In this document: piece by piece, positions 1,859 through 62,192 of the stretch
Layout of the letters: each line of letters begins with the position of its first letter
Position numbering within the stretch: the first letter of the stretch is position 1
Assembly (NCBI GenBank): GCA_030827135.1
Contig: JAURFE010000001.1
Span: 26,569 to 90,568, forward strand
Reading direction: 5' to 3'
Length of the DNA stretch: 64,000 nt
From: Vicinamibacterales bacterium
Lineage (GTDB): Bacteria > Acidobacteriota > Vicinamibacteria > Vicinamibacterales > SCN-69-37
Made by a program: the position numbers and the translations under genes
Notes under the pieces: model-generated
The model's database searches: none
What the model saw: the letters and a program-made list of their open reading frames with translations, nothing else
Told to the model about the DNA's origin: nothing

Positions 1859-2938
1859 TCAGCCCGTGATGCCCTTCCGGAATGCCGCGACCTCGGCGGG
1901 CGTCACGGTGACCGTGACACTCCGCGGGTTCGGACCGCCCTTCGCATCGCGGTCGGGATTAACGCCGCGTGAGCCCGCTGACGCCACGGCGCCCGTGTTC
2001 GTACGTTCCACGCCCAGCTTCGACGACAGGCCGCCGAGGCCGAACTTGCTCTGGGGCTCGGCCGGCGTCGTCCCGGTGGCCGTGGTGGCGACCGCGGTCA
2101 CCGGCACGGGTTTGTACGTGATCGCGGCCGTATAACGCGCGGCCACAGTCGCGGTCGCGGTCAGCTTCTCGGACGAAATCTGCTTCGTCAGGCGTTCGAC
2201 GCGCGTTTTTGTTTCCGGGTGCGAGGCAAACACGCCGCTGGGTTCCTTCAGGTCCTTGTTGCGCTCGGACAGCCGCGTCAGAAACGCGCCGACACCGCCG
2301 GGGGCATACCCCGCGCCGTTCGCGAGACGAATGCCGCCCTGATCCGACGCCGTCTCATCGCCCCGATCGTACCGGTTCTCGAGCAGGTTCTCGTAGGCGC
2401 GGTCGATCAGGTATTCGAGCAGTTCGCTCCGCGTGATCGTCTCGGCCGCCGCCCCCTGCACCTTCGCCTTCTTGATGGCGTTGATGGTGTGCTTTTCGGT
2501 GACATGGAGAATCTCGTGGCTCAACACGCCGGCCAGTTCCGCCTCGGTCCGGATGAGCGCCAGTGCGCCACGCGTGATGTGGATGTAGCCGCCCGGCGCG
2601 GCAAACGCGTTTACGCCATCGGTGTCGAGCACGATGAAGGTCCACGCCAGGTTCGGGCGCGTACTCGAGCCGGCCAGCACCCGGCCCACAAGCGACACAT
2701 ATTTGTGCACCGGTGCACTCTGGACGACACCGTATTTCTCGCGCAGGCGGGCGCTGATCGCGGCGCCCATGTCCGTCTCTTCCTGCTCCGTGATGACCAG
2801 ATCCTTGATTTGATCGGCCAGGCCCCTGGCCTTGTTGACATTGACCGCTCCCTGGGCCACCTTGCCGAGCGCCCCTTGCGCGGACGCGTCCCCGGCCAGA
2901 CCGACTACCACCATCCCGACAAGCAGCGCCTGCCTCAT
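1859..2938 (-). CDS. secreted M48-family zinc metallopeptidase
   Basis: 359-aa ORF. Signal peptide (LLVGMVVVGLAGDASAQ), HEXXH motif (HEILHVTEKH) and downstream ETASDQGG. The ATG overlaps the stop of the cyclase gene (ATGA). Confidence 0.85.
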   Translation of the reverse strand: MRQALLVGMVVVGLAGDASAQGALGKVAQGAVNVNKARGLADQIKDLVITEQEETDMGAAISARLREKYGVVQSAPVHKYVSLVGRVLAGSSTRPNLAWTFIVLDTDGVNAFAAPGGYIHITRGALALIRTEAELAGVLSHEILHVTEKHTINAIKKAKVQGAAAETITRSELLEYLIDRAYENLLENRYDRGDETASDQGGIRLANGAGYAPGGVGAFLTRLSERNKDLKEPSGVFASHPETKTRVERLTKQISSEKLTATATVAARYTAAITYKPVPVTAVATTATGTTPAEPQSKFGLGGLSSKLGVERTNTGAVASAGSRGVNPDRDAKGGPNPRSVTVTVTPAEVAAFRKGITG

Positions 2939-4812
2939 CTCATCTCCCCCGTCTCTGCCAGCACTTCGTGCACGACCACCCGCTGGGTCTTTCCCTTCAC
3001 GGCAATCGCACCAATTTCCCGCATCGCCACCGGCGTCGTCAGCCGCGCCCGTGTCGCCTCGCTGATGAGAATCCGGGCGTAATGATCCTTGGTGGCCGAC
3101 TCCAGACGCGCCCCCAGGTTCACAGCATCACCGATCACCGTGTAACTCATCACCGTGTCGGAGCCGATGTTACCCGCAATCATCTCCCCCGAGTTGATCC
3201 CGATGCCGATCTCCAGCGTCGGCCGCCCCTGCGCCATCCAGCCGGCATTGAGCCGATCCAGTTCCCGCAGCATGTCCAGCGCCGCCGCCACGGCGTGATC
3301 CGCATGCCGTGGGTCGGCTATGGGCGCCCCGAAGAGCCCCATCACCATGTCGCCGACAAACTTGTCGAGCGTGCCGTGGTGACGGAACAGGACGCGCACC
3401 ATGGCGGAGAAATATTCATTGAGTTGTGCCACCACGGCCTCGGGCGTGGCCATCTCGGAGGCGGTCGTGAATCCGCGGATATCGGAAAACAGGACGGACA
3501 TCTCGCGGCGTTGGCCCCCCAGGCGCGCGAGGGACGGATCCGCCACGAGGTGCGCAAAGACGTCCGGTGACACATAGCGGCCAAACAGGACCTTCATCGC
3601 ACGCTTCTGCCGGCCCTCGACAAAATACTGCCAGGCCGTGCCGCCGAATGTCGCCAGTGCCAGACCGAGCACGGGCGCCACCAGGCCGATCCACACGCCG
3701 TTCCCCAGCGCCGCTGTCAGCAGCCAGACCAGGGCCGCGCCGATCGCGGCGACCACGACCACCGCCCACGCCACCGGCAGCACCACACTGCCCACGCCCG
3801 CCGCCACGCTGGCAGCCGCGGTCACCGCCAGATCAACGGGCCAGCCGGCCTTCCGCATGAACTGTTTCGACAACACATCGTCAGCCGCTGCGGCATGCAA
3901 CTGCATGCCGGGCATCGCCGGGCCTCCGAACGGCGAAGGGAACGTGTCCTTCAGCCCGGCCGCCGTCGTGCCGATAAAGACGTACTTGTCACGAAACTCC
4001 GACGGATCCACCAGCGGCGTCGCCCCGTTCAACAGGAGGTCTTCGGAGCGCAGCAGATCGATGAAGGCATAGGTCGTGTAGGTGCGCTGCTGCGCGGCGT
4101 CGGCGTACGGACCGCGCAGCCGGAGCAACATCTGGCTGTCGGGCGCAGGGAGCAGCGGGACCTGCGCCAGATCCGCCTCCGAGACATCGCCAGTCGCCAG
4201 TGCGGTGGCCAACCCGAGCCACGGCACCTGGCGGCCCTGCGCTTCAACAAACGGCCAGATGCGCCGGGCGGTGCCATCCGCGTCCAGTTGCAGGTAGGTG
4301 TGGCCGATGCCCGCCGCGACCGCCGCGAGCTCGGCAAACGGCAGTCGTAATTCGGGACGCGCCGCCACGCCGGTAATGGCGCTCGTGCCGATCGGTCCGT
4401 CGGTCGCGCGCCCCTCGTAGATCGCTTCCGCAGGCAGCACCACGTTGCCGGCGCGGCGCACGCTCTCCACGAACGCGGCGTCGGACTCCGGATTCCGCAG
4501 GTCGCGATCCACAAACAACACGTCGTACGCGATCACGCGGGCGTCTCCGCGCACCAGGAAATCCACCACAGCGGCGTGGATCATCCTCGGCCACGGCCAG
4601 GCCCCGAACGTGGGTTCCAGCAGGCGCAGTGAGGTCTCGTCGATCTCGACCAGCACCAGATCATCCCGGGCCTCTGCGGCCCGGTGGGTGGCGGCCAGCC
4701 GGCGGTCGTATGTGGAGAGTTCCTGGTCGGCGAACACGCCGAGGCGACCCAATCCCGACGCCAGGATCCCGGCGGCGGCGCCGATCGCCAGACCTATCGC
4801 GAGCTTTCGCAT
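2935..4812 (-). CDS. CHASE2-domain adenylate/guanylate cyclase (class III)
   Basis: 625-aa ORF. N-terminal TM helix, an extracytoplasmic CHASE2-like region, three TM helices, then a class III cyclase domain (MSVLFSDIRGFT...FVGDMVMGLFGAP...GINSGEMIAGNIGS). Confidence 0.9.
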   Translation of the reverse strand: MRKLAIGLAIGAAAGILASGLGRLGVFADQELSTYDRRLAATHRAAEARDDLVLVEIDETSLRLLEPTFGAWPWPRMIHAAVVDFLVRGDARVIAYDVLFVDRDLRNPESDAAFVESVRRAGNVVLPAEAIYEGRATDGPIGTSAITGVAARPELRLPFAELAAVAAGIGHTYLQLDADGTARRIWPFVEAQGRQVPWLGLATALATGDVSEADLAQVPLLPAPDSQMLLRLRGPYADAAQQRTYTTYAFIDLLRSEDLLLNGATPLVDPSEFRDKYVFIGTTAAGLKDTFPSPFGGPAMPGMQLHAAAADDVLSKQFMRKAGWPVDLAVTAAASVAAGVGSVVLPVAWAVVVVAAIGAALVWLLTAALGNGVWIGLVAPVLGLALATFGGTAWQYFVEGRQKRAMKVLFGRYVSPDVFAHLVADPSLARLGGQRREMSVLFSDIRGFTTASEMATPEAVVAQLNEYFSAMVRVLFRHHGTLDKFVGDMVMGLFGAPIADPRHADHAVAAALDMLRELDRLNAGWMAQGRPTLEIGIGINSGEMIAGNIGSDTVMSYTVIGDAVNLGARLESATKDHYARILISEATRARLTTPVAMREIGAIAVKGKTQRVVVHEVLAETGEMR

Positions 4813-40655: not shown

Positions 40656-41216
40656 CTACTCCCGTCCGGCCTGCCTCGCGCGTGTCAGGAATTCAATCTT
40701 CTGCCGCTCCATCTCTTCCTCAAAGAGCCGGAACCGCGCCCGTTGCCGAACACTCAGCGTCTCCTCGATGGCCCCGCGCGCCGCCAGCAGTTCCTGCTCG
40801 AACTTGCCCTGCGCGTCGTCGAAGGCCTTGAGTGCCGCGGCCAGTGCGGCATCGTCGGTGCCGGCATCGCCAAACGACCGGCGGAGGTCGTTCAGCATGC
40901 GCATCCGCTGGCGCATGTGCTGGCGGCGCACGTCCTGCAACCGGTTCATGCGCATGAAGAAGCGCTGATACTGCTCATCCGGCAATTGCAGCACGCGCTG
41001 TGCCTGGACGAGCACAAAGGCATCAAACATCCCCTGCAGTTCCTGAAGGCCGACGCCGGGTGCGGGACTGGGCGGCGCGTTCTGCGCCCGGCCGCGTGCG
41101 ATCTGGGGACGCGGCGGAGGCTCCTGCGCCTGCGCGACACTGCCCACCAGGAGCAGCCCCAGAACCGCTGATGTGATGACCGTCTTGACTGTGTTGGCGC
41201 GCATGTCCCTACTCAC
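40656..41216 (-). CDS. periplasmic Spy/CpxP-like (LTxxQ-type) helical protein
   Basis: 186-aa ORF with a signal peptide. Helical and Arg/Gln-rich, with LPDEQ and LSVRQ motifs. Located in the ECF sigma cluster. Confidence 0.5.
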   Translation of the reverse strand: MSRDMRANTVKTVITSAVLGLLLVGSVAQAQEPPPRPQIARGRAQNAPPSPAPGVGLQELQGMFDAFVLVQAQRVLQLPDEQYQRFFMRMNRLQDVRRQHMRQRMRMLNDLRRSFGDAGTDDAALAAALKAFDDAQGKFEQELLAARGAIEETLSVRQRARFRLFEEEMERQKIEFLTRARQAGRE

Positions 41217-41529
41217 TTCCTTCCGTCAGTTCCGCCTGTAACAACCTCGCGAACGCCTCGCGTTCACTCGCAGTCAACGTGGCGAGCGCCCCGTCGAACG
41301 ACCCGGTCGAGGGCCGCAACACCTCACGCGCGGCATCGTCCTCGAGTGACGCCAGCATGTCGGACACAAACTGCCATTGCGCCGTGTCGCCAATGGCATC
41401 GGTCTCAACGACGGCGTCTGCGTCACTCACCACCACATCCGCGACAGGGGTGCGCGGCACCACGCCCCACGAGACCACCAGCAGCAACGCGGCCGCGGCC
41501 GCGAGACTCACCCACGCGCACCACTCCAC
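41209..41529 (-). CDS. TM plus periplasmic part of an anti-sigma factor (separate ORF or frameshifted continuation)
   Basis: 106-aa ORF with a GTG start that begins with a TM helix (WVSLAAAAALLLVVSWGVV). Overlaps the end of the zf-HC2 ORF by 22 nt. Confidence 0.45.
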   Translation of the reverse strand: MEWCAWVSLAAAAALLLVVSWGVVPRTPVADVVVSDADAVVETDAIGDTAQWQFVSDMLASLEDDAAREVLRPSTGSFDGALATLTASEREAFARLLQAELTEGSE

Positions 41530-41780
41530 CAGGCGGCCGTGCGGGTATCCACCGCGCGACCGACTCGCGCCTGCAACTGATCCCAGAACACCGGCGGTGG
41601 TTCAGGCACATCGATGCGCGCATCCACGGCCAGGCCGTCCCACACCTGTTGCAGCGCGGCCACCTCCTGCCGGCATTCGACGCAGTCGTGCAGATGCGCG
41701 CGCCGGGGCGCCGACAGCGTGCCCTCGATCGCGTCGACGCGTTCGTCCTCGCTCAGATGAAGCCTCACTGGCGTCGTCAT
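41508..41780 (-). CDS. zf-HC2 anti-sigma factor, cytoplasmic domain
   Basis: 90-aa ORF with the HLHDCVECRQEV motif. Its ATG overlaps the sigma-factor stop. Confidence 0.65.
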   Translation of the reverse strand: MTTPVRLHLSEDERVDAIEGTLSAPRRAHLHDCVECRQEVAALQQVWDGLAVDARIDVPEPPPVFWDQLQARVGRAVDTRTAAWWSGARG

Positions 41781-42340
41781 GACTCCAACATCCGTTTCAG
41801 ATTCCCAAGTGCGTGAAAAAAATTTGCCTTGGCGGCCCCCACGGTTCCCCCGAGGATGGCCGCAATCTCCTCGTGGGAGAGTTCCTGATACACACGCAAC
41901 ATCACGGTCGCCCGCTGCTTCGCCGGCAGTTGGGCGATCGCCCGCCGGACATCGGCGGCCCGCTCGCCGCGCGCCACCATGCCGAAAGCGTCGTCCGACC
42001 GCTCGTCCACATGACGCGCGGCGTCGAGCGGTTCAATGCCCGGACGGACGAGCGCGGCGCGATTCAGACACACATTCACCGCGACGCGGTGCAGCCAGGT
42101 TGACAGCTTTGCGTCGCCCTTGAACGCCTTCAGGCCTTTGAAGGCGCGCACAAACACGTCCTGCGTGAGATCCGCGGCGTCCTCGTGATTGCGCACGAAC
42201 CGGTAGCACACCTGATACACCCCACGCTGGTGCCGGGCGACGATCGTGTCGAACGCCGCGCGTTCCCCATCCACAAACGAACGCACGAGGGCGAGGTCGT
42301 CCAGCGCCGACAGGTCGGCTGTCACCTTCGAGTCGGTCAC
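41777..42340 (-). CDS. ECF-type RNA polymerase sigma-70 factor
   Basis: Region 2 (YQVCYRFVRNHEDAADLTQDVFVRAF) and region 4 (LPAKQRATVMLRVYQELSHEEIAAILG). Start placed at GTG 42340, which makes a GTGA overlap with the pfkB-like stop. The longest ORF reaches 42400. Confidence 0.85.
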   Translation of the reverse strand: MTDSKVTADLSALDDLALVRSFVDGERAAFDTIVARHQRGVYQVCYRFVRNHEDAADLTQDVFVRAFKGLKAFKGDAKLSTWLHRVAVNVCLNRAALVRPGIEPLDAARHVDERSDDAFGMVARGERAADVRRAIAQLPAKQRATVMLRVYQELSHEEIAAILGGTVGAAKANFFHALGNLKRMLES

Positions 42341-43368
42341 TCCCCGTCCCCACGCTCCGGCGCGCCTGACAACGGCGGCACCGTCTGCTCCCGTCCCCAT
42401 GTTTCCTTAGACCGGCGAAGGGGGCTCTGCGTCACAAAATGCTGCAGTTCCGCCCTCGTCGGCAGGCCGGACTGGGCGCCGCGCCCGCGGCAGTTCAGGG
42501 CCGCCGTCGCGTTTGCGAGGTCCAGAAAATCGGACCACAGACCGCCGGTCCAGGGGTCCAGGAGTCCAGGGGTCCAGAAGTCCCGGGGTCCTGGAGGCCC
42601 GGGGTTCAAGAGCGCCCAGATCAGGCCGGCTCGGAAGGCGTCGCCGGCGCCGGTGGTGTCGGTGACGGGCACGACGTAGCCGGGGGCATAGTGTTCGGTC
42701 TCGCCGTCCCAGGCGATGGCGCCGTTCGCGCCGAGGGTGGCGACGACGACGCGGGCGGCTGAGGCGGCGTGGAGGTGCCGGACGTCTCCTGACAGCGGTT
42801 CGGACACGACGAGAATGTCGACTTCGGCGAGCAGCGCATCGAGGCCCGGCACCTGCGCGTCCACATCGGCGACGGTCAGCACCCCGGCTGCCCGCGCAGC
42901 GCGGGCCATGCGTGCCGACGCATGGGGTTCGGTCGCGTCGACAAGGAGCACCTTCGCGCCGAGCACGGCGTCGACAGGCACGTCATCTCCCCACAGCAGG
43001 GCGTCATCGCGGTGCCACAGCACGGTACGCGTCTGAGCGGCGGCGTCCACAATGATCATCGCCGTTCGCGTCGAGCCCTCGGCGGTTCGGCACCAGGTAC
43101 GGTCAACGCCTTCGCGTGTCAGCGCGTCACAAATGACCGCCGCGTGGCTGTCGGTCCCGAACGCGCCGATGTACCGAACCGAGAGGCCCAGCCGCGCGCA
43201 CCCAACCATCGCCGTCGCGATTTGCCCACCAGGTAGCGTCTCGAGTGACTCGAGCCGCGCCTTCCCATCGGGCGGCGGCAACCCGGCGACCGTGGCGACC
43301 AGATCGACCGAGTTCTCGCCGAAGCCGACGACGTCCCACGTGCGTTGACTTTCGCCTTCCCTTTGCAT
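42337..43368 (-). CDS. PfkB-family sugar/nucleoside kinase carrying a repeat-encoded insertion
   Basis: 343-aa ORF. GFGENSVDLV near the N-terminus and the DTTGAGDAFRAG anion-hole motif. A ~25-aa insertion (NPGPPGPRDFWTPGLLDPWTGGLWSDF) follows that motif. Confidence 0.85.
   Translation of the reverse strand: MQREGESQRTWDVVGFGENSVDLVATVAGLPPPDGKARLESLETLPGGQIATAMVGCARLGLSVRYIGAFGTDSHAAVICDALTREGVDRTWCRTAEGSTRTAMIIVDAAAQTRTVLWHRDDALLWGDDVPVDAVLGAKVLLVDATEPHASARMARAARAAGVLTVADVDAQVPGLDALLAEVDILVVSEPLSGDVRHLHAASAARVVVATLGANGAIAWDGETEHYAPGYVVPVTDTTGAGDAFRAGLIWALLNPGPPGPRDFWTPGLLDPWTGGLWSDFLDLANATAALNCRGRGAQSGLPTRAELQHFVTQSPLRRSKETWGREQTVPPLSGAPERGDGE
42547..42610. repeat. octanucleotide tandem array (GGTCCAGG-like, 8 units) inside the PfkB-family gene
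   Basis: ggtccagg ggtccagg agtccagg ggtccaga agtcccgg ggtcctgg aggcccgg ggttcaag. Confidence 0.8.
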
Positions 43369-43986: not shown

Positions 43987-44310
43987 ATGTCCACTCCTGC
44001 CAAACAACTGAGCTTCACGATCGTCCCGGACGAATCGGCGGACAGCCCCCGCACTTACGCCAACTTCTGCGCGGTCGGGCACACGCCGTTCGACATGACC
44101 CTGACCTTCTGCGACGTGCGGCCGCTGTCGGAACGCGACATCAAAAACGCCGAAGAGCATCAGACCGTGAAGGCGCCGGTCGTGTCGCGCATCGCCCTCC
44201 CCTTCAGCGTGGTGCCCGGCCTCATCAATGCGCTCCAGGAACAGATGCGCTCCATGCAGGATGCCCAGGTGCAGCAGTCGCAGGGCTGGCCCCAGGGACC
44301 GCTCCACTAG
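43987..44310 (+). CDS. DUF3467-like protein
   Basis: 107-aa ORF starting 2 nt after the lexA stop (YANFCAVGHTPFDMTLTFCDV). Confidence 0.7.
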   Translation: MSTPAKQLSFTIVPDESADSPRTYANFCAVGHTPFDMTLTFCDVRPLSERDIKNAEEHQTVKAPVVSRIALPFSVVPGLINALQEQMRSMQDAQVQQSQGWPQGPLH

Positions 44311-44365
44311 ATGAGCGGATGGGCAGTTGGGCGGATGGGCGGCTGAGTTGTTGGGCGGCTGATGG
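44310..44365. repeat. G-rich 8-bp-periodic tandem array (GATGGGCG-like, ~7 units)
   Basis: gatgagcg gatgggca gttgggcg gatgggcg gctgagtt gttgggcg gctgatgg. It fills the DUF3467-nth intergenic gap and runs into the nth ATG. Confidence 0.6.
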
Positions 44366-45409: not shown

Positions 45410-45415
45410 CGGGTT

Positions 45416-45478
45416 CATGTAGGGCCCGCTGGGTTGGAGCGGGCCAGTCATGTAGGGCCCGCTGGGTTGGAGCGGGCC
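45416..45478. repeat. two tandem REP-like palindromic elements (CATGTAGGGCCCGCTGGGTTGGAGCGGGCC x2, 33-bp period)
   Basis: Each copy folds as GGCCCGCT-gggttgg-AGCGGGCC (8-bp stem). Lies between convergent genes and overlaps the last codons of the GNAT gene. Confidence 0.8.
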
Positions 45479-52792: not shown

Positions 52793-52845
52793 GACGCGCT
52801 GAACCTGAGCGCGTCATCGCCTGGCGCGCTACAACCGAGCGCGCT

Positions 52846-53160
52846 CTACACGGGCGCGTCGGCCCCGCACTTCCAGCACGCCGTGAACTGTGCCTCGACG
52901 AGTTCGCCGCAGGAGGCACAACGCCAGAGACGGCTGGCTTCGAGGCCTGTCGGGCCCTGCTGCCGCAACAGCGCCGCCGCCTCGGCGGCGCGCGCATCGT
53001 CGAGCACCCAGAGTTCCGGCCTCGCCTCGTTGACCGGCACGCCGCCGCTGGCGCCGAACAACGACTCGTGCCGAATCTCGCTCTCGATGCCTGCGGTGTC
53101 GAGCACGCCCTTGAAGAAGTGCGCCTCGGCCGGGTGCTGCGCGATGAACACGCGAATCAC
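52846..53160 (-). CDS. DUF2007-like protein with C-terminal zinc ribbon
   Basis: 104-aa ORF (MIRVFIAQHPAEAHFFKGVLDTAGI...; CASCGELVEAQFTACWKCG). Confidence 0.7.
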   Translation of the reverse strand: MIRVFIAQHPAEAHFFKGVLDTAGIESEIRHESLFGASGGVPVNEARPELWVLDDARAAEAAALLRQQGPTGLEASRLWRCASCGELVEAQFTACWKCGADAPV

Positions 53161-53183: not shown

Positions 53184-53402
53184 GTGGCCTTCCAGCAGGA
53201 CCCCTTCATCGTCGAAATCATCCGGCCGGCCACCGACGAAATCACGGTCGTGGACGTGCTGGTGGGATCACTCGGCGTGGCGGGCGCGCTGGCCCTTGCC
53301 GCGCTTCCGCTGGGGGCACTTGCCGGCTGGCTGTTGATTCGCTGGAAGCAGCGACGACGGCCGGAGGATGACCACATGCCCTCGATCCAGCACCCCAAGT
53401 AG
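53184..53402 (+). CDS. hypothetical small membrane protein
   Basis: 72-aa ORF with one TM helix (LVGSLGVAGALALAALPLGALAGWLLI). Its GTG start lies 6 nt after a TATAGT hexamer. Confidence 0.4.
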   Translation: MAFQQDPFIVEIIRPATDEITVVDVLVGSLGVAGALALAALPLGALAGWLLIRWKQRRRPEDDHMPSIQHPK

Positions 53403-53438
53403 ATGGGCGGCTGGGCGGATGGTTAGATGTGGGTTCTG
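53399..53438. repeat. G-rich 8-bp-periodic array (GGGCGGMTG-like)
   Basis: gtagatgg gcggctgg gcggatgg ttagatgt gggttctg. Spans the gap between the small ORF and the pepA stop. Confidence 0.45.
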
Positions 53439-54931
53439 AGCCCGAGTTCCACTAACGTGCGCACCGCCACGCCGGTCGCCCCTTTGGCCTGATAGGCGCG
53501 GCGTTCTTCGGCCCAGGCGGTGCCGGCGATATCGAGGTGCGCCCACGGGCGGTCCTTCACGAACTCGCGCAGGAACATCGCTGCCGTGCTGGCTCCGGCC
53601 CAGCGCCCCGCGGAGTTGAGCATGTCCGCGATCTCGCTCTTGAGGAGTTCGCGATATTCCTCGTGCAGCGGCAGGTGCCACAAGCGGTCGCCCGCCAAGG
53701 TGCCCGCGTTCTGCACGGTCTCCACCCAGGCATCCGGCGTACCGAAGAGGCCCGATGACGTGCGCCCAAGCGCCACCATGCACGCGCCCGTCAACGTCGC
53801 AATGTCGACCAGATGAGTGGCGCCGAGTTCCTGCGCGTACCAGATGGCATCACCGAGGATCAGCCGGCCCTCCGCATCGGTGTTGATGATTTCGACCGTG
53901 GTGCCGCTCGCCGCGGTCAACACGTCGCCCGGGCGCACAGCCTTGCCGCCCACCATGTTCTCCGCCATGGGGATGACCCCGATCACGCGGCGCGGGGCCT
54001 TGAGCAGGGCCAATGCCCGCATGGCGCCGGCCACAGCGGCGCCACCGGACATGTCGTATTTCATCCGCTCCATGCCTTCGGCCGGCTTGATCGACACGCC
54101 GCCGGTATCGAAGGTGATGCCCTTGCCGATGAAACCGAGCACCGGAGACGCCGGGGCGCCGGGCGGATCGTGCCGGATCACCACCAGGCGCGGCGGCTCG
54201 GCACTGCCCTGCGCCACCCCGAGCAACATGCCCATCTTCAAGGCACGAATCTGCTGCTCGTCGAGCACCTCGACCTTCAGGCCCACCTCGGTGGCCACGG
54301 CGGCCACCCGCTCTGCAAACACCCGGGGCGTCAACACGTTGGAGGGCTCGTTCGCCAGCTCGCGCGTGACGTTGGCCGAGGCCCCGAGCGTGCGTCCGCG
54401 GAACACCGCCTCGGCCAGCGCCGTCGGGTCGGCCGCGGGCGACACGATGACGATGCGCTCCGGAAAACCACGGGTATCGCGATCGGACTTGTAGGTCCCC
54501 GCGTCGAACTCCGCCGTGGACATCCCGTCGGCGCCAATTTCGGCCACGCGAATCGGATCCAGTCCGGCGCGCACCACAAACGCGGCAGACCGCGCGGACC
54601 GGATGCGCGCCGTGTAACTGCAGGCCGCCGCCACCCGGCGCAGGCGTTCGGCATCGGCGTCCTCGCGCCGTCCCGCTCCCACGAGCGCCAGACGCAGGGC
54701 CCGGTACGGCCCGCCAGTGACCCGCGCGATGAACAGTTCGTACAACCGGCCACGAAACTCTGACGACTCGCGTGCGCGCGAGATATCGCCGCCTGTGGCC
54801 GTGTCCAGCCCCGGGAGATCCTCAAGCGGGTCCGTGCCTTCGAACACCGGCACAAACAACATGTCGACGTCGACTGATTCCGGCTTTCCCGCGACACCCG
54901 AATATTCAGGTGATGCCTTCTCGTGCCCCAA
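53423..54931 (-). CDS. pepA: leucyl aminopeptidase (M17)
   Basis: 502-aa ORF with a TTG start. N-terminus aligns with E. coli PepA (EYSGVAGKPESVDVDMLFVPVFE). Catalytic motif NTDAEGRL. Confidence 0.9.
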   Translation of the reverse strand: MGHEKASPEYSGVAGKPESVDVDMLFVPVFEGTDPLEDLPGLDTATGGDISRARESSEFRGRLYELFIARVTGGPYRALRLALVGAGRREDADAERLRRVAAACSYTARIRSARSAAFVVRAGLDPIRVAEIGADGMSTAEFDAGTYKSDRDTRGFPERIVIVSPAADPTALAEAVFRGRTLGASANVTRELANEPSNVLTPRVFAERVAAVATEVGLKVEVLDEQQIRALKMGMLLGVAQGSAEPPRLVVIRHDPPGAPASPVLGFIGKGITFDTGGVSIKPAEGMERMKYDMSGGAAVAGAMRALALLKAPRRVIGVIPMAENMVGGKAVRPGDVLTAASGTTVEIINTDAEGRLILGDAIWYAQELGATHLVDIATLTGACMVALGRTSSGLFGTPDAWVETVQNAGTLAGDRLWHLPLHEEYRELLKSEIADMLNSAGRWAGASTAAMFLREFVKDRPWAHLDIAGTAWAEERRAYQAKGATGVAVRTLVELGLRTHI

Positions 54932-54976
54932 CGCGCTGCCCCTTTGGTAGACTGCCGAGTAACCGTGAGATCACCC

Positions 54977-55402
54977 ATGTTACCCCGGCTGGCCTGGCTC
55001 CTCTGCCTGGTTGGTACACTGATCGTCTTTCCGACCTGGCCCCCCGCGGTGTCCGGCGATGGGGCCCAGGGCAAGGGCAAACCGAAGGCCGCGCTGCGGG
55101 TGAACCCGGCCCTCATTTTTGTGCCGCAGCGCATCGTGGCCACCGCAGAACTGACCGGCGGCGCCGACGATTTCCAGGACTACTATTGCCCCAAGATCGA
55201 GTGGATTTGGGACGACACCACCACCTCGGAGTCTACTGAGGACTGCGCAGCCTATGAACCCGGCACGAGCACCATCCGGCGCCGGTACACCGCTGACCAC
55301 ACCTACAAGGATCCGGGCAACTACGACGTCGTCTTCCGGATGAAACAGGGCAGCAAGATCGTCCTGTCACTGCGCCAGACGGTCCGCGCGCAGGGACACT
55401 AG
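54977..55402 (+). CDS. hypothetical secreted protein with PKD-like motif
   Basis: Start taken at MLPRLAWLLCLVGTLIVF. Contains HTYKDPGNYDVVF. Confidence 0.55.
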   Translation: MLPRLAWLLCLVGTLIVFPTWPPAVSGDGAQGKGKPKAALRVNPALIFVPQRIVATAELTGGADDFQDYYCPKIEWIWDDTTTSESTEDCAAYEPGTSTIRRRYTADHTYKDPGNYDVVFRMKQGSKIVLSLRQTVRAQGH

Positions 55403-55467
55403 GGGTCCAGGGGTCCAGGGGTCCAGGGGTCCAGGGGTCCAGGGGTCCAAGGGGTCCAAGGGGTTCG
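55402..55467. repeat. octanucleotide tandem array (GGGGTCCA x5, then GGGGTCCAA x2 and a degenerate unit)
   Basis: Read directly from the sequence. It begins at the stop codon of the upstream gene. Confidence 0.85.
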
Positions 55468-55493
55468 TAGGGCGCGCTGGGTTGTAGCGCGCC
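55468..55493. repeat. REP-like palindromic element (TAGGGCGCGCTGGGTTGTAGCGCGCC)
   Basis: 8-bp stem GGCGCGCT/AGCGCGCC with loop gggttgt. Same family as 45416-45478. Confidence 0.7.
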
Positions 55494-55513: not shown

Positions 55514-57442
55514 TCAGGTGCGCAGTTCGTCCCGATCCGCAAAGTACCGGAGCGCGTCGGGATTCGCGAGCGCCTCGCGGTTCTTCACGGGCTGACCGTG
55601 AATGACGTTACGCACGGCCAGTTCGACCAGCTTGCCGCTCTTGGTTCTCGGCAGTTCGGGCACCTGAAGAATCTTCGCGGGAGCGTGCCGCGGCGACGTG
55701 TTCCGCCGGATCTGCGTCGCGATGGCCTTCCGCATGGTGTCGTCGAGCACAAGCCCGTCACGCAGGCGGACGAACAACACGATCCGCTCGTCCCCCTCCC
55801 ACTGCTGCCCGACGGCCAGACTTTCGATGACCTCCGGGAGTTGCTCCACCTGCCGGTAGATCTCGGCGGTCCCAATGCGCACACCGCCGGGGTTCAGTGT
55901 CGCATCCGACCGCCCGTGGATCACAAACCCACCGTGTGCGGTCCGTTCGGCCCAATCCCCATGACACCAGGCACCAGGAAACCGTTCGAAATACGCGGCG
56001 CGATACTTGTCGCCGGCCGGATCGTTCCAGAATCCAATCGGCATCGACGGAAACGGAGCCGTGCACACCAGTTCGCCCTGACCGCTTCCGGGCACCACAG
56101 ACTTGCCGTCGCCATCCCACACGTCCACGGCCATGCCCAGCCCCGGCCCCTGAATCTCGCCGCGCCACACGGGCTCGGTCGGCACACCGCCAACAAAACA
56201 ACTCACGATGTCGGTGCCGCCGGAGATCGACGCGAGATGGACGTCCGCCTTGATGCCGTCGTACACAAAATCAAAACTCTCCGGCGACAGCGGGGATCCG
56301 GTGGACGTGATCGTGCGGACGGTGCCGAGGTCGTGTGTCTCACGCGGCCGAAGCCCGGCCTTCGCCACGGCATCGATGAATTTCGCAGACGTGCCAAACA
56401 ACGTCACGCCATGCGCCTGCGCGAGATCAAACAGCCGACTTCCATCGGGATAAAACGGCGAGCCGTCATACAAGACGATGGTCGCGCCGGATGCGAGCGC
56501 CGACACCAGCCAGTTCCACATCATCCACCCACAGGTCGTGAAGTAAAACACGCGGTCGCCGGCCCGCACGTCAGCGTGCAACTGGTGTTCCTTCAGGTGC
56601 TGCAGGAGCGTGCCGCCATGGCCATGCACGATGCACTTGGGCACGCCGGTCGTCCCCGACGAATACAGCACGTACAGCGGGTGGTTGAAAGACACTCTGG
56701 TCCAAAGGTCCAGGGTCCAGGGTCCAGGGTTCGCGGTCCAGGGGTCCAGAGGTCCAGAGGTCCTGGAGTCCACGATGAACGTCTGACGGAGTGTCGGGAG
56801 TCGTGTCGTGATCTCGCTGAGCTTCGGCCGACAGTCGTGATACTTGCCGCCGTAGTGATAGCCGGCAACGGCGACGAGGACCTTGGGTTCAATCTGGCCG
56901 AACCGATCGATCACGCCCTGCACACCAAAATCCGGTGAGCACGACGACCAGACCGCGCCGAGTGAGGCCGCGGCAAGCGCGGCAATGACGGCCTCGGGCA
57001 CGTTCGCCATAAATCCGGCGACCCGATCCCCCGACTCCACGCCGGCCGCGCGGAACGCCGTCGCGCACGCCGCGACCTCACGGCGCAACTCGCGCCACGT
57101 CAGCCGACGCTCCTCGCCGGTTTCATCCACCGCCAGAATCGCCAACCCCTCGTCATCGCGGCGCAACAGGTTCTCGGCGACGTTGATGCGCGCGTCCGGA
57201 AAAAACTGCGCCCCGGGCATTTGGTCGCCATCCACAACCGGGCGCGCACCCTTGTCGCCGACCACTCCGCAAAAATCCCAGATCGCGGACCAGAACTCGG
57301 CACGATGCGTGATGGACCATGCGTGAAGCGCGTGGTAGTCGGGAAACGCCTGCCCCGTCCGGGCGGTGACCAAGGCTGTGAAACGGGACAGCGCGGCGGC
57401 GTCGATTCGCGCCGGGTCCGGGGTCCACAGCGGGCTCGCCAT
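55514..57442 (-). CDS. acetoacetate-CoA ligase (acetoacetyl-CoA synthetase) carrying a repeat-encoded insertion
   Basis: Start at [10 protein letters not shown] (ATG 57442). AMP-binding motif [14 protein letters not shown], preceded by the repeat-derived segment [20 protein letters not shown]. Confidence 0.9.
56699..56774. repeat. degenerate GGTCCAG(G) tandem array (7-9-bp units, ~10 units) inside the acetoacetyl-CoA synthetase gene
   Basis: ggtccaaa ggtccag ggtccag ggtccag ggttcgc ggtccag gggtccaga ggtccaga ggtcctgga gtccacg. Confidence 0.8.
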
Positions 57443-57449
57443 TTCCGGG

Positions 57450-58298
57450 TCAGGCTTTCTTGAGCGCCCGGGCGCGCTCAAACAGGTCGCGCACGGAGGG
57501 CGCATCCATCAGCGCCTGCGACGACGTTGGAAGTTTGGCGGCGATGCCGTGTAATGCCTCGGCAATGAAGTCGGCGTTGGTGGAGAGGATGCCCTGCCAC
57601 ACGTCGGACGAACTGGAGGCCAGACGCGTCATGTCGGCAAACCCGGACCCGGACCAGGCCACGCCATCTGGTCCAACCGCTTCCCCCGACGCCGCCATCA
57701 AGGCGGTGGACACCACTTGCGGCGCGTGGCTCACGTGCGCCATCACGCGATCGTGCGTGACGGCATCGGTCCACGAGGGCTTTGCGCCCAGAGCCACAGT
57801 GAAGGTGGTCAGCATCGCTTCCACGGCGTCCCCCGCGTCGTCCGCGCCGCCCGTCGTCGCGGAGACCAGCAGCCATGGTTTGCCGTCGAACAGATCCGCG
57901 CGCGCGGCCGCGAGTCCTGAGGATTCCGATCCTGCCACGGGATGTCCCCCCACAAAGGTTAATCGCGTACGCGCGGCAGCCTCCATCACAGTGCGCTTCG
58001 TGCTTGAGACATCCGTCACCAGCGCGCGAGTGCCGGTCAGCGCCAGCACCTCGAGCACATGCGGCACGGTCTGCACAGGGGTGGCGATGATGATGAGGTC
58101 GGAGGCCGTGAGGTCTTCGATGTGATCGACGACTGCGGTAATCGCTCCCTGGGACACCGCCTCGTGCGTGATCGGCGCCGGGTCACACGCGGTGATGTGC
58201 AACCCGGGCCAGCAGCGGCGGGCCGCCAGCGCCACGGAACCGCCGATCAGGCCGAGCCCAATGATGCCGACGCGCTCAAAGGGCGGCGCCCCGATCAC
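57450..58298 (-). CDS. tyrA: prephenate/arogenate dehydrogenase
   Basis: 282-aa ORF with a GTG start. NAD motif ([10 protein letters not shown]) and GGHPVAGSE. Confidence 0.85.
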
Positions 58299-59572: not shown

Positions 59573-60351
59573 CCCTTCAGCCATCGCACAAACGTGCCGG
59601 CCGCGCGCGCTTCATCGCCCGGCGCGGCCTCGGCGATGACCTGCACCAGCGCGCTGCCGACCACCGCGGCGTCGGCATACGCACACGTTTCGCGCACGTG
59701 CTCGGGTTGCGAGATGCCGAACCCCAGCGCGACCGGCACATCCGTCACCGCGCGGATCTGATCCACCACCGGCCGGGCCGTTCCGGCCACCGCGTCACGC
59801 GCGCCGGTGACGCCCAGTCGGGAAATCGCATAGAGGAACCCGCGCCCGAGACCCGCCGCCGTCCGCAGGCGTTCGGTCGTCGTCGTCGGGCTGATGAGAA
59901 AGATCATGTCGAGCCCTCGACTGTCGAGGGCCGCGTGCATCTCGCCGGCCTCCTCAATCGGGAGGTCCAGCAGCAGCACGCCGTCCACGCCGGCCGCCGC
60001 GGCCGCCTCCACAAACCGCGCCGTGCCCATCCGCGCGACAGGATTCACGTAGGTGAACAAGACGATCGGCGTTTCAATCGTCGCCCGCAGATCGTCCACC
60101 ATCGCCAGCACGGATGTCAGCGACGTCCCTGCCGCCAGCGCCCGTTCTGACGCCCGCTGAATCACCGGCCCATCGGCAATGGGATCCGAAAACGGCACGC
60201 CGATCTCAATGACGTCCGCGCCGGCCTCAGCGATCGCGCGCACCACCGCTTTCGATCGATCCATATCCGGATCGCCCGCGGTGATGTAACAGACCAGGCC
60301 GGCTGTTTTCTCGCGCCGGATCCGTGCGAATGCCTCCGCGAGCCGGCTCAT
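59569..60351 (-). CDS. trpA: tryptophan synthase alpha chain
   Basis: 260-aa ORF ([18 protein letters not shown]...; GFGISQPEH). Confidence 0.95.
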
Positions 60352-62192
60352 CGCCCACCCCCGGACCCCTGAACCTGAAGAAGTTCTCGCACGGTGTCGA
60401 CGTCTTTATCCCCTCGCCCCGAGAGGTTGAGGATCACGATGGCACCTGCCGGAAAGTCCTTGAGATGCTCCTGCACCCAGGCCGCCGCGTGAGACGACTC
60501 CAACGCCGGCAGCAGGCCTTCATTGCGTGCCAGCCACGTAAACCCGCGCAACGCGGCGTCATCGTCGACCCACGCGTATTCCGTGCGCCCGATGGCGGCG
60601 AGATACGCGTGTTCGGGTCCGACGGACGGATAGTCGAGACCGGCCGAGACCGAGTGTGTCGGGAGGATGTTGCCGTGTGCGTCCTGCAGCAGCAGGCTCC
60701 GAGTGCCGTGCAACACGCCGGCGACGCCGCCGGCAAACCGCGCCGCGTGTGCCCCATCGCGAATCCCGCGGCCGCCCGCCTCGACGCCGATCAACCGTAC
60801 GCCGGAGTCGGCCACAAACGCGTCAAAAATGCCCATCGAGTTGCTGCCTCCGCCGACGCAGGCGACGACGGCATCGGGCAGCCGGCCGGTGTCCCGCAGC
60901 ACCTGGGCGCGGGCCTCCGCACCGATGACCGACTGAAACTCGCGCACCATCAGGGGATACGGATGCGGCCCGAGCACCGACCCGAGGACGTATGCCGTGG
61001 TCGCCACGTTCGCCACCCAGTCGCGCATGGCTTCGTTGATTGCATCCTTCAACGTTCGACTGCCTCCGTCCACCGAGGCCACGGTCGCTCCGAGCACCCG
61101 CATGCGGAACACGTTCAGGGACTGGCGCGCCATGTCGTCGGCCCCCATGTAGACCACGCACTCCAGACCGAGCAACGCACAGGCAGTCGCCGTCGCCACA
61201 CCGTGCTGGCCCGCGCCGGTTTCAGCCACCACCCGGGTCTTCCCCATCCGGCGCGCCAGCAACACCTGGCCGACGGCGTTGTTGATCTTGTGTGCGCCCG
61301 TATGCGCGAGGTCTTCACGTTTGAGAAAGATGCGGACGCCGGACGCCCCGGCCAGGTGTGACGCCTCGTAGAGCGGCGTCGGACGGCCGACAAACGTCGA
61401 CAGCAGGTGTTGCAGCTCTGCGACAAACGACGGCTCCGTCCGCGCGGCGAAGTAGGCCGTCGTCAATTCCTCCACAGGCGCTACCAGCGTCTCGGGGATG
61501 AACCGGCCGCCGAATTCGCCGAAGTACCCGCGCGCATCGGGGTCACGCATGCCGAAGGATGGGCGGATGGGTGGATGGGTGGATGGGTGGATGTTGGCCA
61601 TGAGTTCCTTAATACGGGCGTGGTCCTTGATGCCGGGGCAGGATTCGATGCCTGACGACACGTCGATGCCCCAGGGGCGCACGGCCGTGACGGCGGCACC
61701 CACATTCGCGGCCGAGAGACCTCCGGCAAGCAGGATGGGGCGTGCTGCGGCAATCCGGGCAGCCATGGGCCAGTTTGCCGCTCGCCCTGTGCCGCCGTGT
61801 TGGACGGGATCGTGCGCGTCCACGAGCACGATGACGGACTGCGGTACTGCGAGTGCGGCACACACGTCGGCGTCGGACTGCGGTGCGATGGCTTTGATGA
61901 CCTGCACCCCGAGGGAGAGATACTCGCGCGCGTCCTCGCGGCCGTGCAGTTGGACGGCCGTGAGTCCGGCGAGGCCGACCACCCGCGCGACCTCGGCCAC
62001 CGGGGCATCGACAAACACGCCGACCTTCATCACGCGCGACGGCACGCCAACGGAGATTGCAGCAATCTGTTCCGGCGTGATGGCTCGCGGGCTGCCCGGC
62101 CACAATACAAACCCGAGCGCGTTCGCGCCGGCGGCCACGGCCGCGTCCACATCCTCACGACGTGTCAGTCCGCACATCTTGACGACAGTCAT
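60348..62192 (-). CDS. trpB: single ORF encoding phosphoribosylanthranilate isomerase (TrpF, aa 1-~197) followed by tryptophan synthase beta (TrpB, from ~aa 215)
   Basis: 614-aa ORF. TrpF (VKMCGLT...[16 protein letters not shown]), a linker [15 protein letters not shown], then TrpB ([15 protein letters not shown]...HTGAHKINN). No stop between the two. Internal ATGs at 61601 and 61550 could start TrpB independently. Confidence 0.9.
61557..61596. repeat. octanucleotide tandem array GGATGGGY x5 at the trpF/trpB junction
   Basis: ggatgggc ggatgggt ggatgggt ggatgggt ggatgttg. On the coding strand it encodes the [10 protein letters not shown] linker. Confidence 0.85.

Follow-up and report, generated by a model that had tools for sequence, protein, structure and literature searches.

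A PfkB-family sugar kinase gene of a Vicinamibacterales bacterium contains a degenerate tandem array of eight octanucleotide units. This array is probably a passenger coding microsatellite, that is, a member of a genome-wide, strand-asymmetric family of G-rich repeats which has grown by slippage and has been kept where it was in frame and the protein segment was permissive. The gene lies in a stretch of 64,000 nucleotides (contig JAURFE010000001.1, positions 26,569 to 90,568 of the forward strand), referred to below as the window, and coordinates are those of the window. The array, its host gene and the segment that it encodes are as follows:

42547..42610, G-rich strand on +, translated from -: degenerate octamer array, 8 units of the GGTCCAGG type (Tandem Repeats Finder (TRF), direct reading and 24-mer search)
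42337..43368, -: PfkB-family sugar kinase open reading frame (ORF), 343 aa, intact (Pfam PF00294, AlphaFold2 (AF2) and Foldseek)
42541..42606, -: repeat-encoded coil, residues about 255-276, between helices 241-254 and 277-292 (DSSP and predicted local distance difference test (pLDDT))

Direct reading of 42547-42610 gives the unit order GGTCCAGG GGTCCAGG AGTCCAGG GGTCCAGA AGTCCCGG GGTCCTGG AGGCCCGG GGTTCAAG, with 2 of the 8 units being perfect copies. TRF reports the array at period 8 (42547-42591, 5.6 copies, 81% matches) and at period 16 (42548-42605, 3.6 copies, 88% matches), so that the eight consecutive 8-bp units of the original prediction, a note made earlier on the same DNA, are confirmed; the opposite-strand translation given there, NPGPPGPRDFWTPGLLDPWTGGLWSDF, matches the ORF list exactly. 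A 24-mer of the unit, searched with up to 3 mismatches, has 8 matches in the window, all on the + strand, as compared with 0.00 expected from 100 shuffles. The array occupies 74-80% of the kinase ORF (about codons 253-274 of 343), and the octamer unit is read through all three frames, giving a peptide with a period of 8 aa. It had been placed directly after the DTTGAGDAF motif; it is indeed within the kinase, but it starts 10 residues further on, at the end of the following helix.

The host protein belongs to the PfkB/ribokinase family by profile, motifs and fold, and resembles ribokinase and sulfofructose kinase. It matches Pfam PF00294 (PfkB) with E=4.9e-36 over profile positions 4-302 of 302. 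For the catalytic (anion-hole) motif DTxGAGD, both alignments show D237, T239, G240 and G242 to be invariant, with A241 and D243 conserved to at least 90%, while G47 and G48 of the N-terminal GG motif are invariant across 119 homologues. The AF2 model built on the alignment of these 119 homologues has a pLDDT of 89 and a predicted template-modelling score (pTM) of 0.88, and Foldseek superimposes it on YihV (7ag6, sulfofructose kinase) and ribokinase (6znx) with target-normalised template-modelling (TM) scores of 0.85 and 0.84, respectively (E=1e-25). All NCBIfam equivalogs for the kinase scored far below their cut-offs (best 106 bits vs 330). The intact ORF, the conserved motifs and the confident structure prediction rule out a pseudogene.

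In the predicted structure, the array corresponds to a low-confidence coil at the surface of an otherwise confident model (10-residue block means of pLDDT across the loop of 81, 55 and 78), a structure prediction having been proposed earlier as a check for a surface loop. The model thus suggests that the array encodes a disordered surface loop rich in P, G, W, T, L and D, with the fold and the catalytic motifs left intact. The Thermus ribokinase 6znx has 11 residues between the aligned blocks where the window kinase has 30, and the repeat segment is unaligned to the solved ribokinases. Measured in the 119 aligned homologues between the last residue of GAGDAFR and the first of ANxxAAL, the segment has 20-26 residues (mode 22) in 78 homologues at no more than about 50% identity and 18-45 residues in 40 closer relatives, with 38 in the window kinase. 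The repeat insertion is therefore missing from the more distant homologues and present in the close clade; an alignment of orthologues had been proposed as a check on this point. Of the insertion of 20-25 aa that had been claimed, the in-frame insertion stands; the size is near but smaller, with a net gain of about 16-19 aa.

The same loop is built of repeat-derived peptides, DPMD among them, throughout the close clade. Its DNA was compared at six orthologous loci, and the loops of the relatives read:

L122: four CYTGGACY units only, 54 nt
L121: mixed GGTCCAG and GGTCCAGG units (7- and 8-mers)
L005: heptamer (GGACTGG)4.6, with the G-rich strand as the coding strand
L123: arrays on either side of a 31-nt palindromic element, CCGCCTTCGCCAAGGCTTCGGCGGGCAAGCC
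L124: degenerate composite

All compared loops are in frame and keep the catalytic motifs. At the native loop ends, ALLD and LDFAN, the coding sequence is itself CTGGAC, the unit's core; these flanks are visible in L122 and in the window. The loop site is a repeat hot-spot across the whole clade, a point missed by the original prediction. The 31-nt element is translated in frame in relatives, reading PSPRLRRAS in the loop of the kinase and AFAKATAGKP in a coenzyme A (CoA) ligase; peptides derived from it occur in the L123 kinase loop and in proteins P0006-P0020 and P0128-P0142, a situation in Acidobacteriota that is like that of the Rickettsia palindromic elements (RPE; see below).

Six arrays are present in the 64 kb, and they fall into only two unit families, with the G-rich strand on + in all six. 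Family 1 (units GGGGTCCA, GGGTCCA and GGGGTCCC) and family 2 (unit GGATGGGC/T) each have three arrays where 0 are expected; those of family 2 (44310-44362, 53402-53422 and 61557-61593) had been overlooked. Units of both families are open in all six frames. The arrays outside the kinase, together with the gene that hosts one of them, are:

55401..55464, +: near-perfect (GGGGTCCA)7.8, intergenic, beginning at the TAG of ORF 54923-55402 (TRF, 98% matches)
44310..44362, +: (GATGGGCG)n, spanning the entire spacer, from the stop (TAG) of a DUF3467 gene up to the start (ATG) of an endonuclease III-type gene (Pfam HhH-GPD) (TRF)
53402..53422, +: short (GATGGGCG)2.6 between the stop codons of two convergent ORFs (TRF, ORF list)
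56699..56772, +: GGTCCAG(G) 7/8-nt array in the acetoacetate-CoA ligase gene (TRF, ORF and 4wd1 alignment)
61557..61593, +, translated from - as 11 residues: (GGATGGGT)4.6, in the TrpF-TrpB interdomain linker (TRF, 96%)
55514..57505, -: acetoacetate-CoA ligase ORF (TIGR01217, 926 bits against a cut-off of 521; PDB 4wd1, E=2e-184)

The claim that the repeat family occurs elsewhere in the window is thus borne out by TRF and the 24-mer search, and the two further copies that had been placed at 55402 and 56699 correspond to the intergenic array at 55401-55464 and to the array at 56699-56772 in the acetoacetate-CoA ligase gene.

Two of these arrays are translated within other enzymes. Gene callers start the acetoacetate-CoA ligase 21 codons downstream, giving 642 aa, and the array encodes 20 residues immediately N-terminal of a 10-residue motif. 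The segment concerned is a native one of 42 residues (PDSWDDFLAPF...) in relatives at 69-74% identity and has 47 residues in the window, and in the close clade it consists of 39-62 residues of repeat peptides; the array has mostly replaced the native segment, with almost no net insertion. TrpF and TrpB are fused in one ORF of 614 aa (60348-62192; Pfam PRAI and PALP). The fusion is old and widespread, being common to many relatives down to 60% identity; in other relatives, whose TrpB is 76-83% identical, TrpB is a protein of its own, of 408-417 aa. The linker is hypervariable and repeat-derived in the close clade only.

The three intergenic arrays (3 of the 6) begin at TAG stops (44307-44309, 53400-53402 and 55399-55401), and by a crude count only about 22% (16 of 71) of the window's long open frames end in TAG. 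As a single C-to-T change in the unit converts CAGGGG to TAGGGG, the arrays may supply or shift gene ends. In L005, whose kinase is 74% identical, the spacer orthologous to 44310-44362 has 4 units as compared with about 6.5 in the window. At the site orthologous to the 55401 array, the 70%-identical relative L127 has one GGTCCAGGGG only, within the final codons (VQG) of the small ORF, which would be a seed or a relic. In the 78% relative L129, the region downstream of the CoA ligase (2917-3080) contains degenerate GGTCCA-type units in both orientations, back to back, which form a long inverted repeat between convergent genes; the window has there a one-orientation array and a repetitive extragenic palindromic (REP) hairpin:

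55467..55493, +: REP-like palindrome GTAGGGCGCGCTGGGTTGTAGCGCGCC, directly after the 55401 array (4 copies in the window vs 0 expected)

The REP-like family, GTAGGGCSCGCTGGGTTGKAGCGSGCC, has its copies at 45419, 45452, 52823-52849 (-) and 55467-55493, two of which (45415-45478) form a perfect 33-nt tandem duplication. A search of the whole window against Rfam at the gathering threshold gave no match.

The repeats extend well beyond this lineage. A scan for exact (GGGGTCCA)3 in one genome per species yielded at least 113 stretches, and the counts that follow are among the matches listed. There are dozens per genome in the Bradymonadales metagenome-assembled genome (MAG) CAYLTX01, the Persicimonas MAG JBKGZI01 and the 7.5-Mb 'delta proteobacterium' OY969087.1, several in Solibacteraceae and Vicinamibacterales, and isolated copies in Streptomyces, Acidimicrobiia, Isosphaeraceae, Gemmatimonadetes, WOR-3 and other groups. 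Of 12 arrays in Acidobacteriota, 5 come after a stop codon, the G-rich strand being the sense strand, and a terminator-like hairpin often follows. Of the 78 arrays in the three Bradymonadales-type genomes (L009-L120), 38 are located 0-18 nt upstream of a start codon, as compared with 2 of 78 in the control arrangement; in these start-codon arrays the C-rich strand is the sense strand and stands in place of a Shine-Dalgarno sequence. Many of the Bradymonadales-type arrays are exactly 36 nt long (4.5 units), and other short tandem repeats come after them (AACGGC/AACTGC, GCGGATGG, CGTGGT and GGGCTTGG). The repeat phenomenon is genome-wide and reaches several phyla, which the original prediction had missed. 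On OY969087.1, array orientations are mixed along the chromosome and match the direction of the adjacent gene, ruling out a replication-arm bias there. The co-orientation of the six window arrays, together with a GC skew that is negative throughout the window, is compatible with a replication-strand bias, six arrays being too few to settle the matter. No (GGGGTCCA)3 was found in 2.9 million viral contigs, which rules out a phage origin; since three permutations of the same composition gave 1, 0 and 0 matches, these counts are uninformative on the specificity of the unit. A literature search returned nothing relevant on these octamer arrays, on octanucleotide repeats or on repeats of Bradymonadales.

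Within the species the array is nearly stable, while between species its turnover is rapid. Conspecific assemblies are 99.5% identical over 21 kb, with an identical array and only two indels, both elsewhere; the identity of the array is in part circular evidence, exact protein identity having been the basis on which those contigs were collected. The window kinase is an independent allele, with 21 substitutions in the gene as compared with L001, and the 90% cluster includes four distinct full-length alleles, all of 343 aa. A contig from the Joint Genome Institute (JGI; L130), obtained by a flank-gap-flank pattern search of metagenomes, is also of reference length, and the 8 alleles of the CoA-ligase array do not differ in length. 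The description of the insertion as old, degenerate and stabilised agrees with its degenerate units and with its identity among conspecific assemblies. The fifth informative member of the 90% cluster, P0124 (285 aa), departs from the reference exactly inside the array. Its DNA (L126, ENA ERZ27251500) lacks 16 nt, i.e. two units, between 14-nt direct repeats CTGGACCCCTGGAC, and reaches a premature TGA 9 nt before the end of the 2.9-kb contig. Two private amino-acid changes in P0124 argue for a real haplotype. The risk of frameshift that had been deduced from a unit length not divisible by three is thereby supported, since the two-unit loss truncates the kinase; slippage is a real risk, and the tract remains a deletion hot-spot.

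These observations can be arranged in a scheme of four steps: i) an array would nucleate where the native sequence resembles the unit, here presumably at the Leu-Asp codons CTGGAC found at both ends of the loop, ii) it would grow and shrink by slipped-strand mispairing, for which a deletion has been observed once and expansion is presumed, iii) selection retains only in-frame, stop-free versions, as the comparison of orthologues shows, the survivors being those in sequence-tolerant segments, here the kinase surface loop, the variable surface segment of the CoA ligase and the TrpF-TrpB linker, and iv) point mutation would erode the tract (81% matches) and so reduce later slippage.

Several points weigh against this scheme. 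Slippage from random seeds predicts many unrelated units, yet only two families are seen and GGGGTCCA recurs in several phyla, so that a unit-specific driver is needed; G-quadruplex-induced stalling, a binding protein and a templated process are candidates. The seed evidence is correlative, and a single unit at an orthologous site could be the relic of a contracted array. The L126 deletion comes from a single short-read contig and may be an assembly artefact. As for DNA structure, Watson-Crick hairpins are ruled out as the cause of instability, as the arrays fold no better than shuffles (single-strand DNA folding of five arrays, one or both strands, z from -2.2 to +2.2, with the pure arrays worse than shuffles). 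A G-quadruplex is predicted for the (GGGGTCCA)7.8 array (-50.5 vs -27.0 +/- 4.2 kcal/mol for shuffles), and the canonical G3+ motif is matched by two arrays only, the pure intergenic one and that of TrpF-TrpB. Because the pure arrays match both the consensus and the prediction, quadruplex-induced stalling is a candidate driver for the family. The kinase array does not fit the G3+ motif, and a quadruplex as a property of that array itself is rejected.

The passenger microsatellite has to be set against four other explanations and a more speculative extension. The first supposes that ready-made arrays were inserted by a small mobile or enzymatically deposited element, RPE-like or telomerase-type. 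Such an element would account for the GGGGTCCA-type unit at several loci of the window and in many phyla, for the fixed 36-nt (4.5-unit) copies of Bradymonadales and for the co-occurrence of arrays with the palindromic element CCGCCTTCGCCAAGGCTTCGGCGGGCAAGCC. We nevertheless regard it as unlikely, because neither terminal inverted repeats nor target-site duplications nor conserved ends are seen in the flanks of 137 arrays (123 from other genomes, the rest from the window and its conspecific assemblies), the unit numbers at one site are graded, and native unit-like seeds are found at orthologous sites. In addition, there are 0 copies in the 2.9 million viral contigs, no candidate enzyme gene is linked to the arrays in the window, and empty-site polymorphisms are lacking.

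According to the second, whose architecture the original prediction had pointed out, the array is an evolved contingency locus in which gain or loss of units switches the kinase ON and OFF, perhaps together with the operon of an extracytoplasmic function (ECF) sigma factor encoded immediately downstream:

41777..42340, -: ECF sigma-70 gene, GTG start overlapping the kinase stop (GTGA, 42337-42340) (gene calls, sequence and ORF list)

The 4-nt overlap is kept wherever both genes are called (L001-L007, L121 and the short contigs L123 and L124). Since the kinase stop overlaps the sigma GTG start, the two genes are probably translationally coupled, and the early stop in the 16-nt deletion allele could affect the sigma operon too. 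Points in favour of a switch are this arrangement, a unit length not divisible by 3 and the existence in nature of an allele that has lost two units and stops early. The tract, however, is not a long homogeneous one (81% matches), and it lies near neither the 5' end nor a promoter, at a position late in the ORF, whereas an enrichment near N-termini is described for phase-variable repeats in coding sequence (PMC3315296). Its host is a cytoplasmic metabolic enzyme, a sugar kinase, instead of a surface, restriction-modification or virulence gene, and its sister arrays lie in acetoacetate-CoA ligase and TrpF-TrpB, that of the ligase being invariant in 8 alleles. As to unit number, one out-of-frame allele stands beside the four distinct full-length alleles and L130 at reference length, and deeper orthologues vary in frame only. 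An evolved switch is therefore rather improbable, and the contingency-locus reading in that sense is not upheld.

The extension takes (GGGGTCCA)n and its relatives as cis-acting products of a sequence-specific process that is shared by several phyla and places them at gene boundaries. The activity could be a G-quadruplex-dependent or templated repeat addition. The arrays would then be G-rich 3' untranslated region (UTR) modules between stop and terminator in Acidobacteriota, and C-rich leaders 0-18 nt before start codons, replacing the Shine-Dalgarno sequence, in Bradymonadales; in-gene copies would be by-products doubling as slippage switches, the kinase one being coupled through GTGA to the ECF sigma operon. 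We offer this as a long shot.

It is still less probable that the loop is an adaptive peptide insertion, giving the kinase a regulatory or interaction surface. The repeat-derived loop is kept throughout the clade, and the tandem repeats of Borgs are reported to be under selection for creating disordered regions (PMC9879509). Both the length (18-45 aa) and the sequence of the loop are unconserved among orthologues, though, the model has low confidence there, and the same repeat DNA lies untranslated between genes and in unrelated enzymes. Finally, an assembly or sequencing artefact, suggested by the frequent breaking of short-read assemblies at the arrays (P0367 ends inside the CoA-ligase array and L126 just past the kinase array), is effectively refuted by the presence of the array in at least six independent assemblies (NCBI, ENA and JGI); related arrays at the orthologous site in other species and a reading frame preserved in every orthologue compared also speak against it.

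Some features of the neighbourhood may be added. At 41514, 4 nt (CGGA) that four conspecific assemblies contain are missing from the window, and their absence splits a 191-aa gene into ORFs 41209-41529 and 41508-41780 (-) of 90 and 106 aa. The gene lies downstream of the ECF sigma factor, encodes a putative anti-sigma factor and has no Pfam match; its split form reflects a frameshift pseudogene or else an error of sequencing. An AMIN-domain amidase in the vicinity suggests a diderm organism. Named relatives at 44-76% identity are labelled Vicinamibacterales, Acidobacteria or Acidobacteriota, and the closest named proteins (74-86% identity) are from a MAG labelled Acidimicrobiia; the analysis took the lineage, with some reserve, as Acidobacteriota, most likely of class Vicinamibacteria.

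In certain lineages from soil and freshwater, non-triplet repeats are not limited to the contingency genes of pathogens: spacers and the permissive loops of ordinary enzymes are colonised by a small number of 7-8-nt units, generating fast-evolving, length-variable segments and occasional frameshift hot-spots. In practice, such arrays break short-read assemblies, inflate the apparent divergence of proteins, and create P/G/W/T-rich pseudo-motifs in databases as well as spurious or real pseudogenes. The occurrence of one octamer across phyla, with lineage-specific placement at stops or starts, raises the question of a common structural or enzymatic driver and of a regulatory role.

Four known systems invite comparison. 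Contingency loci show polymorphism within populations, and their host genes are of the surface, restriction-modification or virulence class. The kinase array resembles those of Haemophilus, Neisseria and Campylobacter in being an in-ORF tandem repeat with a non-triplet unit, in which slippage by whole units causes frameshifts (one such allele here). In contrast, their tracts are perfect and usually near the 5' end, whereas the kinase array is degenerate, late in a metabolic enzyme and almost invariant.

Rickettsia palindromic elements reportedly sit, as in-frame insertions, within protein-coding genes (Ogata et al. 2000), and are said to be palindromic units of 100-150 bp and fixed length. They have in common with the present arrays that dispersed repeats are tolerated in conserved genes at permissive surface sites, and the loops of the relatives also hold a small palindromic element. 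Here, however, the array is tandem and variable in number and has no palindromic structure; a discrete palindromic element with defined ends was not found, the folding being no better than that of shuffles and the 137 flanks being without common ends.

The Borg repeats are similar in being fast-evolving tandem repeats with independent origins at many sites, which yield low-complexity or disordered protein segments. Their in-gene units are said to be multiples of three, to differ between loci and to be under selection, whereas here the unit is of 7-8 nt, a small set of units keeps recurring and the peptide shows no sign of selection.

Last come the short tandemly repeated repetitive elements (STRR) of cyanobacteria, which are genome-wide, tandem repeats of 7 nt (7-8 nt here) with strand-asymmetric units containing C/G runs, and are mostly intergenic. 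Dispersed arrays of the same 7-8-nt unit and an intergenic preference for gene boundaries were likewise observed here, and CCAGTCC, the complement of the L005 unit GGACTGG, is presumably the STRR1 heptamer. The function of STRR sequences in heterocystous cyanobacteria is unknown, transcript stability or translational coupling having been suggested (PMC2670836), and, in the account of a citing paper, an STRR has intruded into a functional gene, that of RNase P RNA (Vioque 1997). The resemblance noted between the two systems is one of units. The present arrays differ in that they occur in Acidobacteriota and others, have an octamer as the main unit and are demonstrably translated in protein genes. 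The array works like a coding microsatellite and, as a family, like the STRR heptamers; it is set apart from these systems by its 8-nt unit and 8-aa period, by its host lineage, by the fact that the same loops have been colonised repeatedly, and by its recurrence across phyla.

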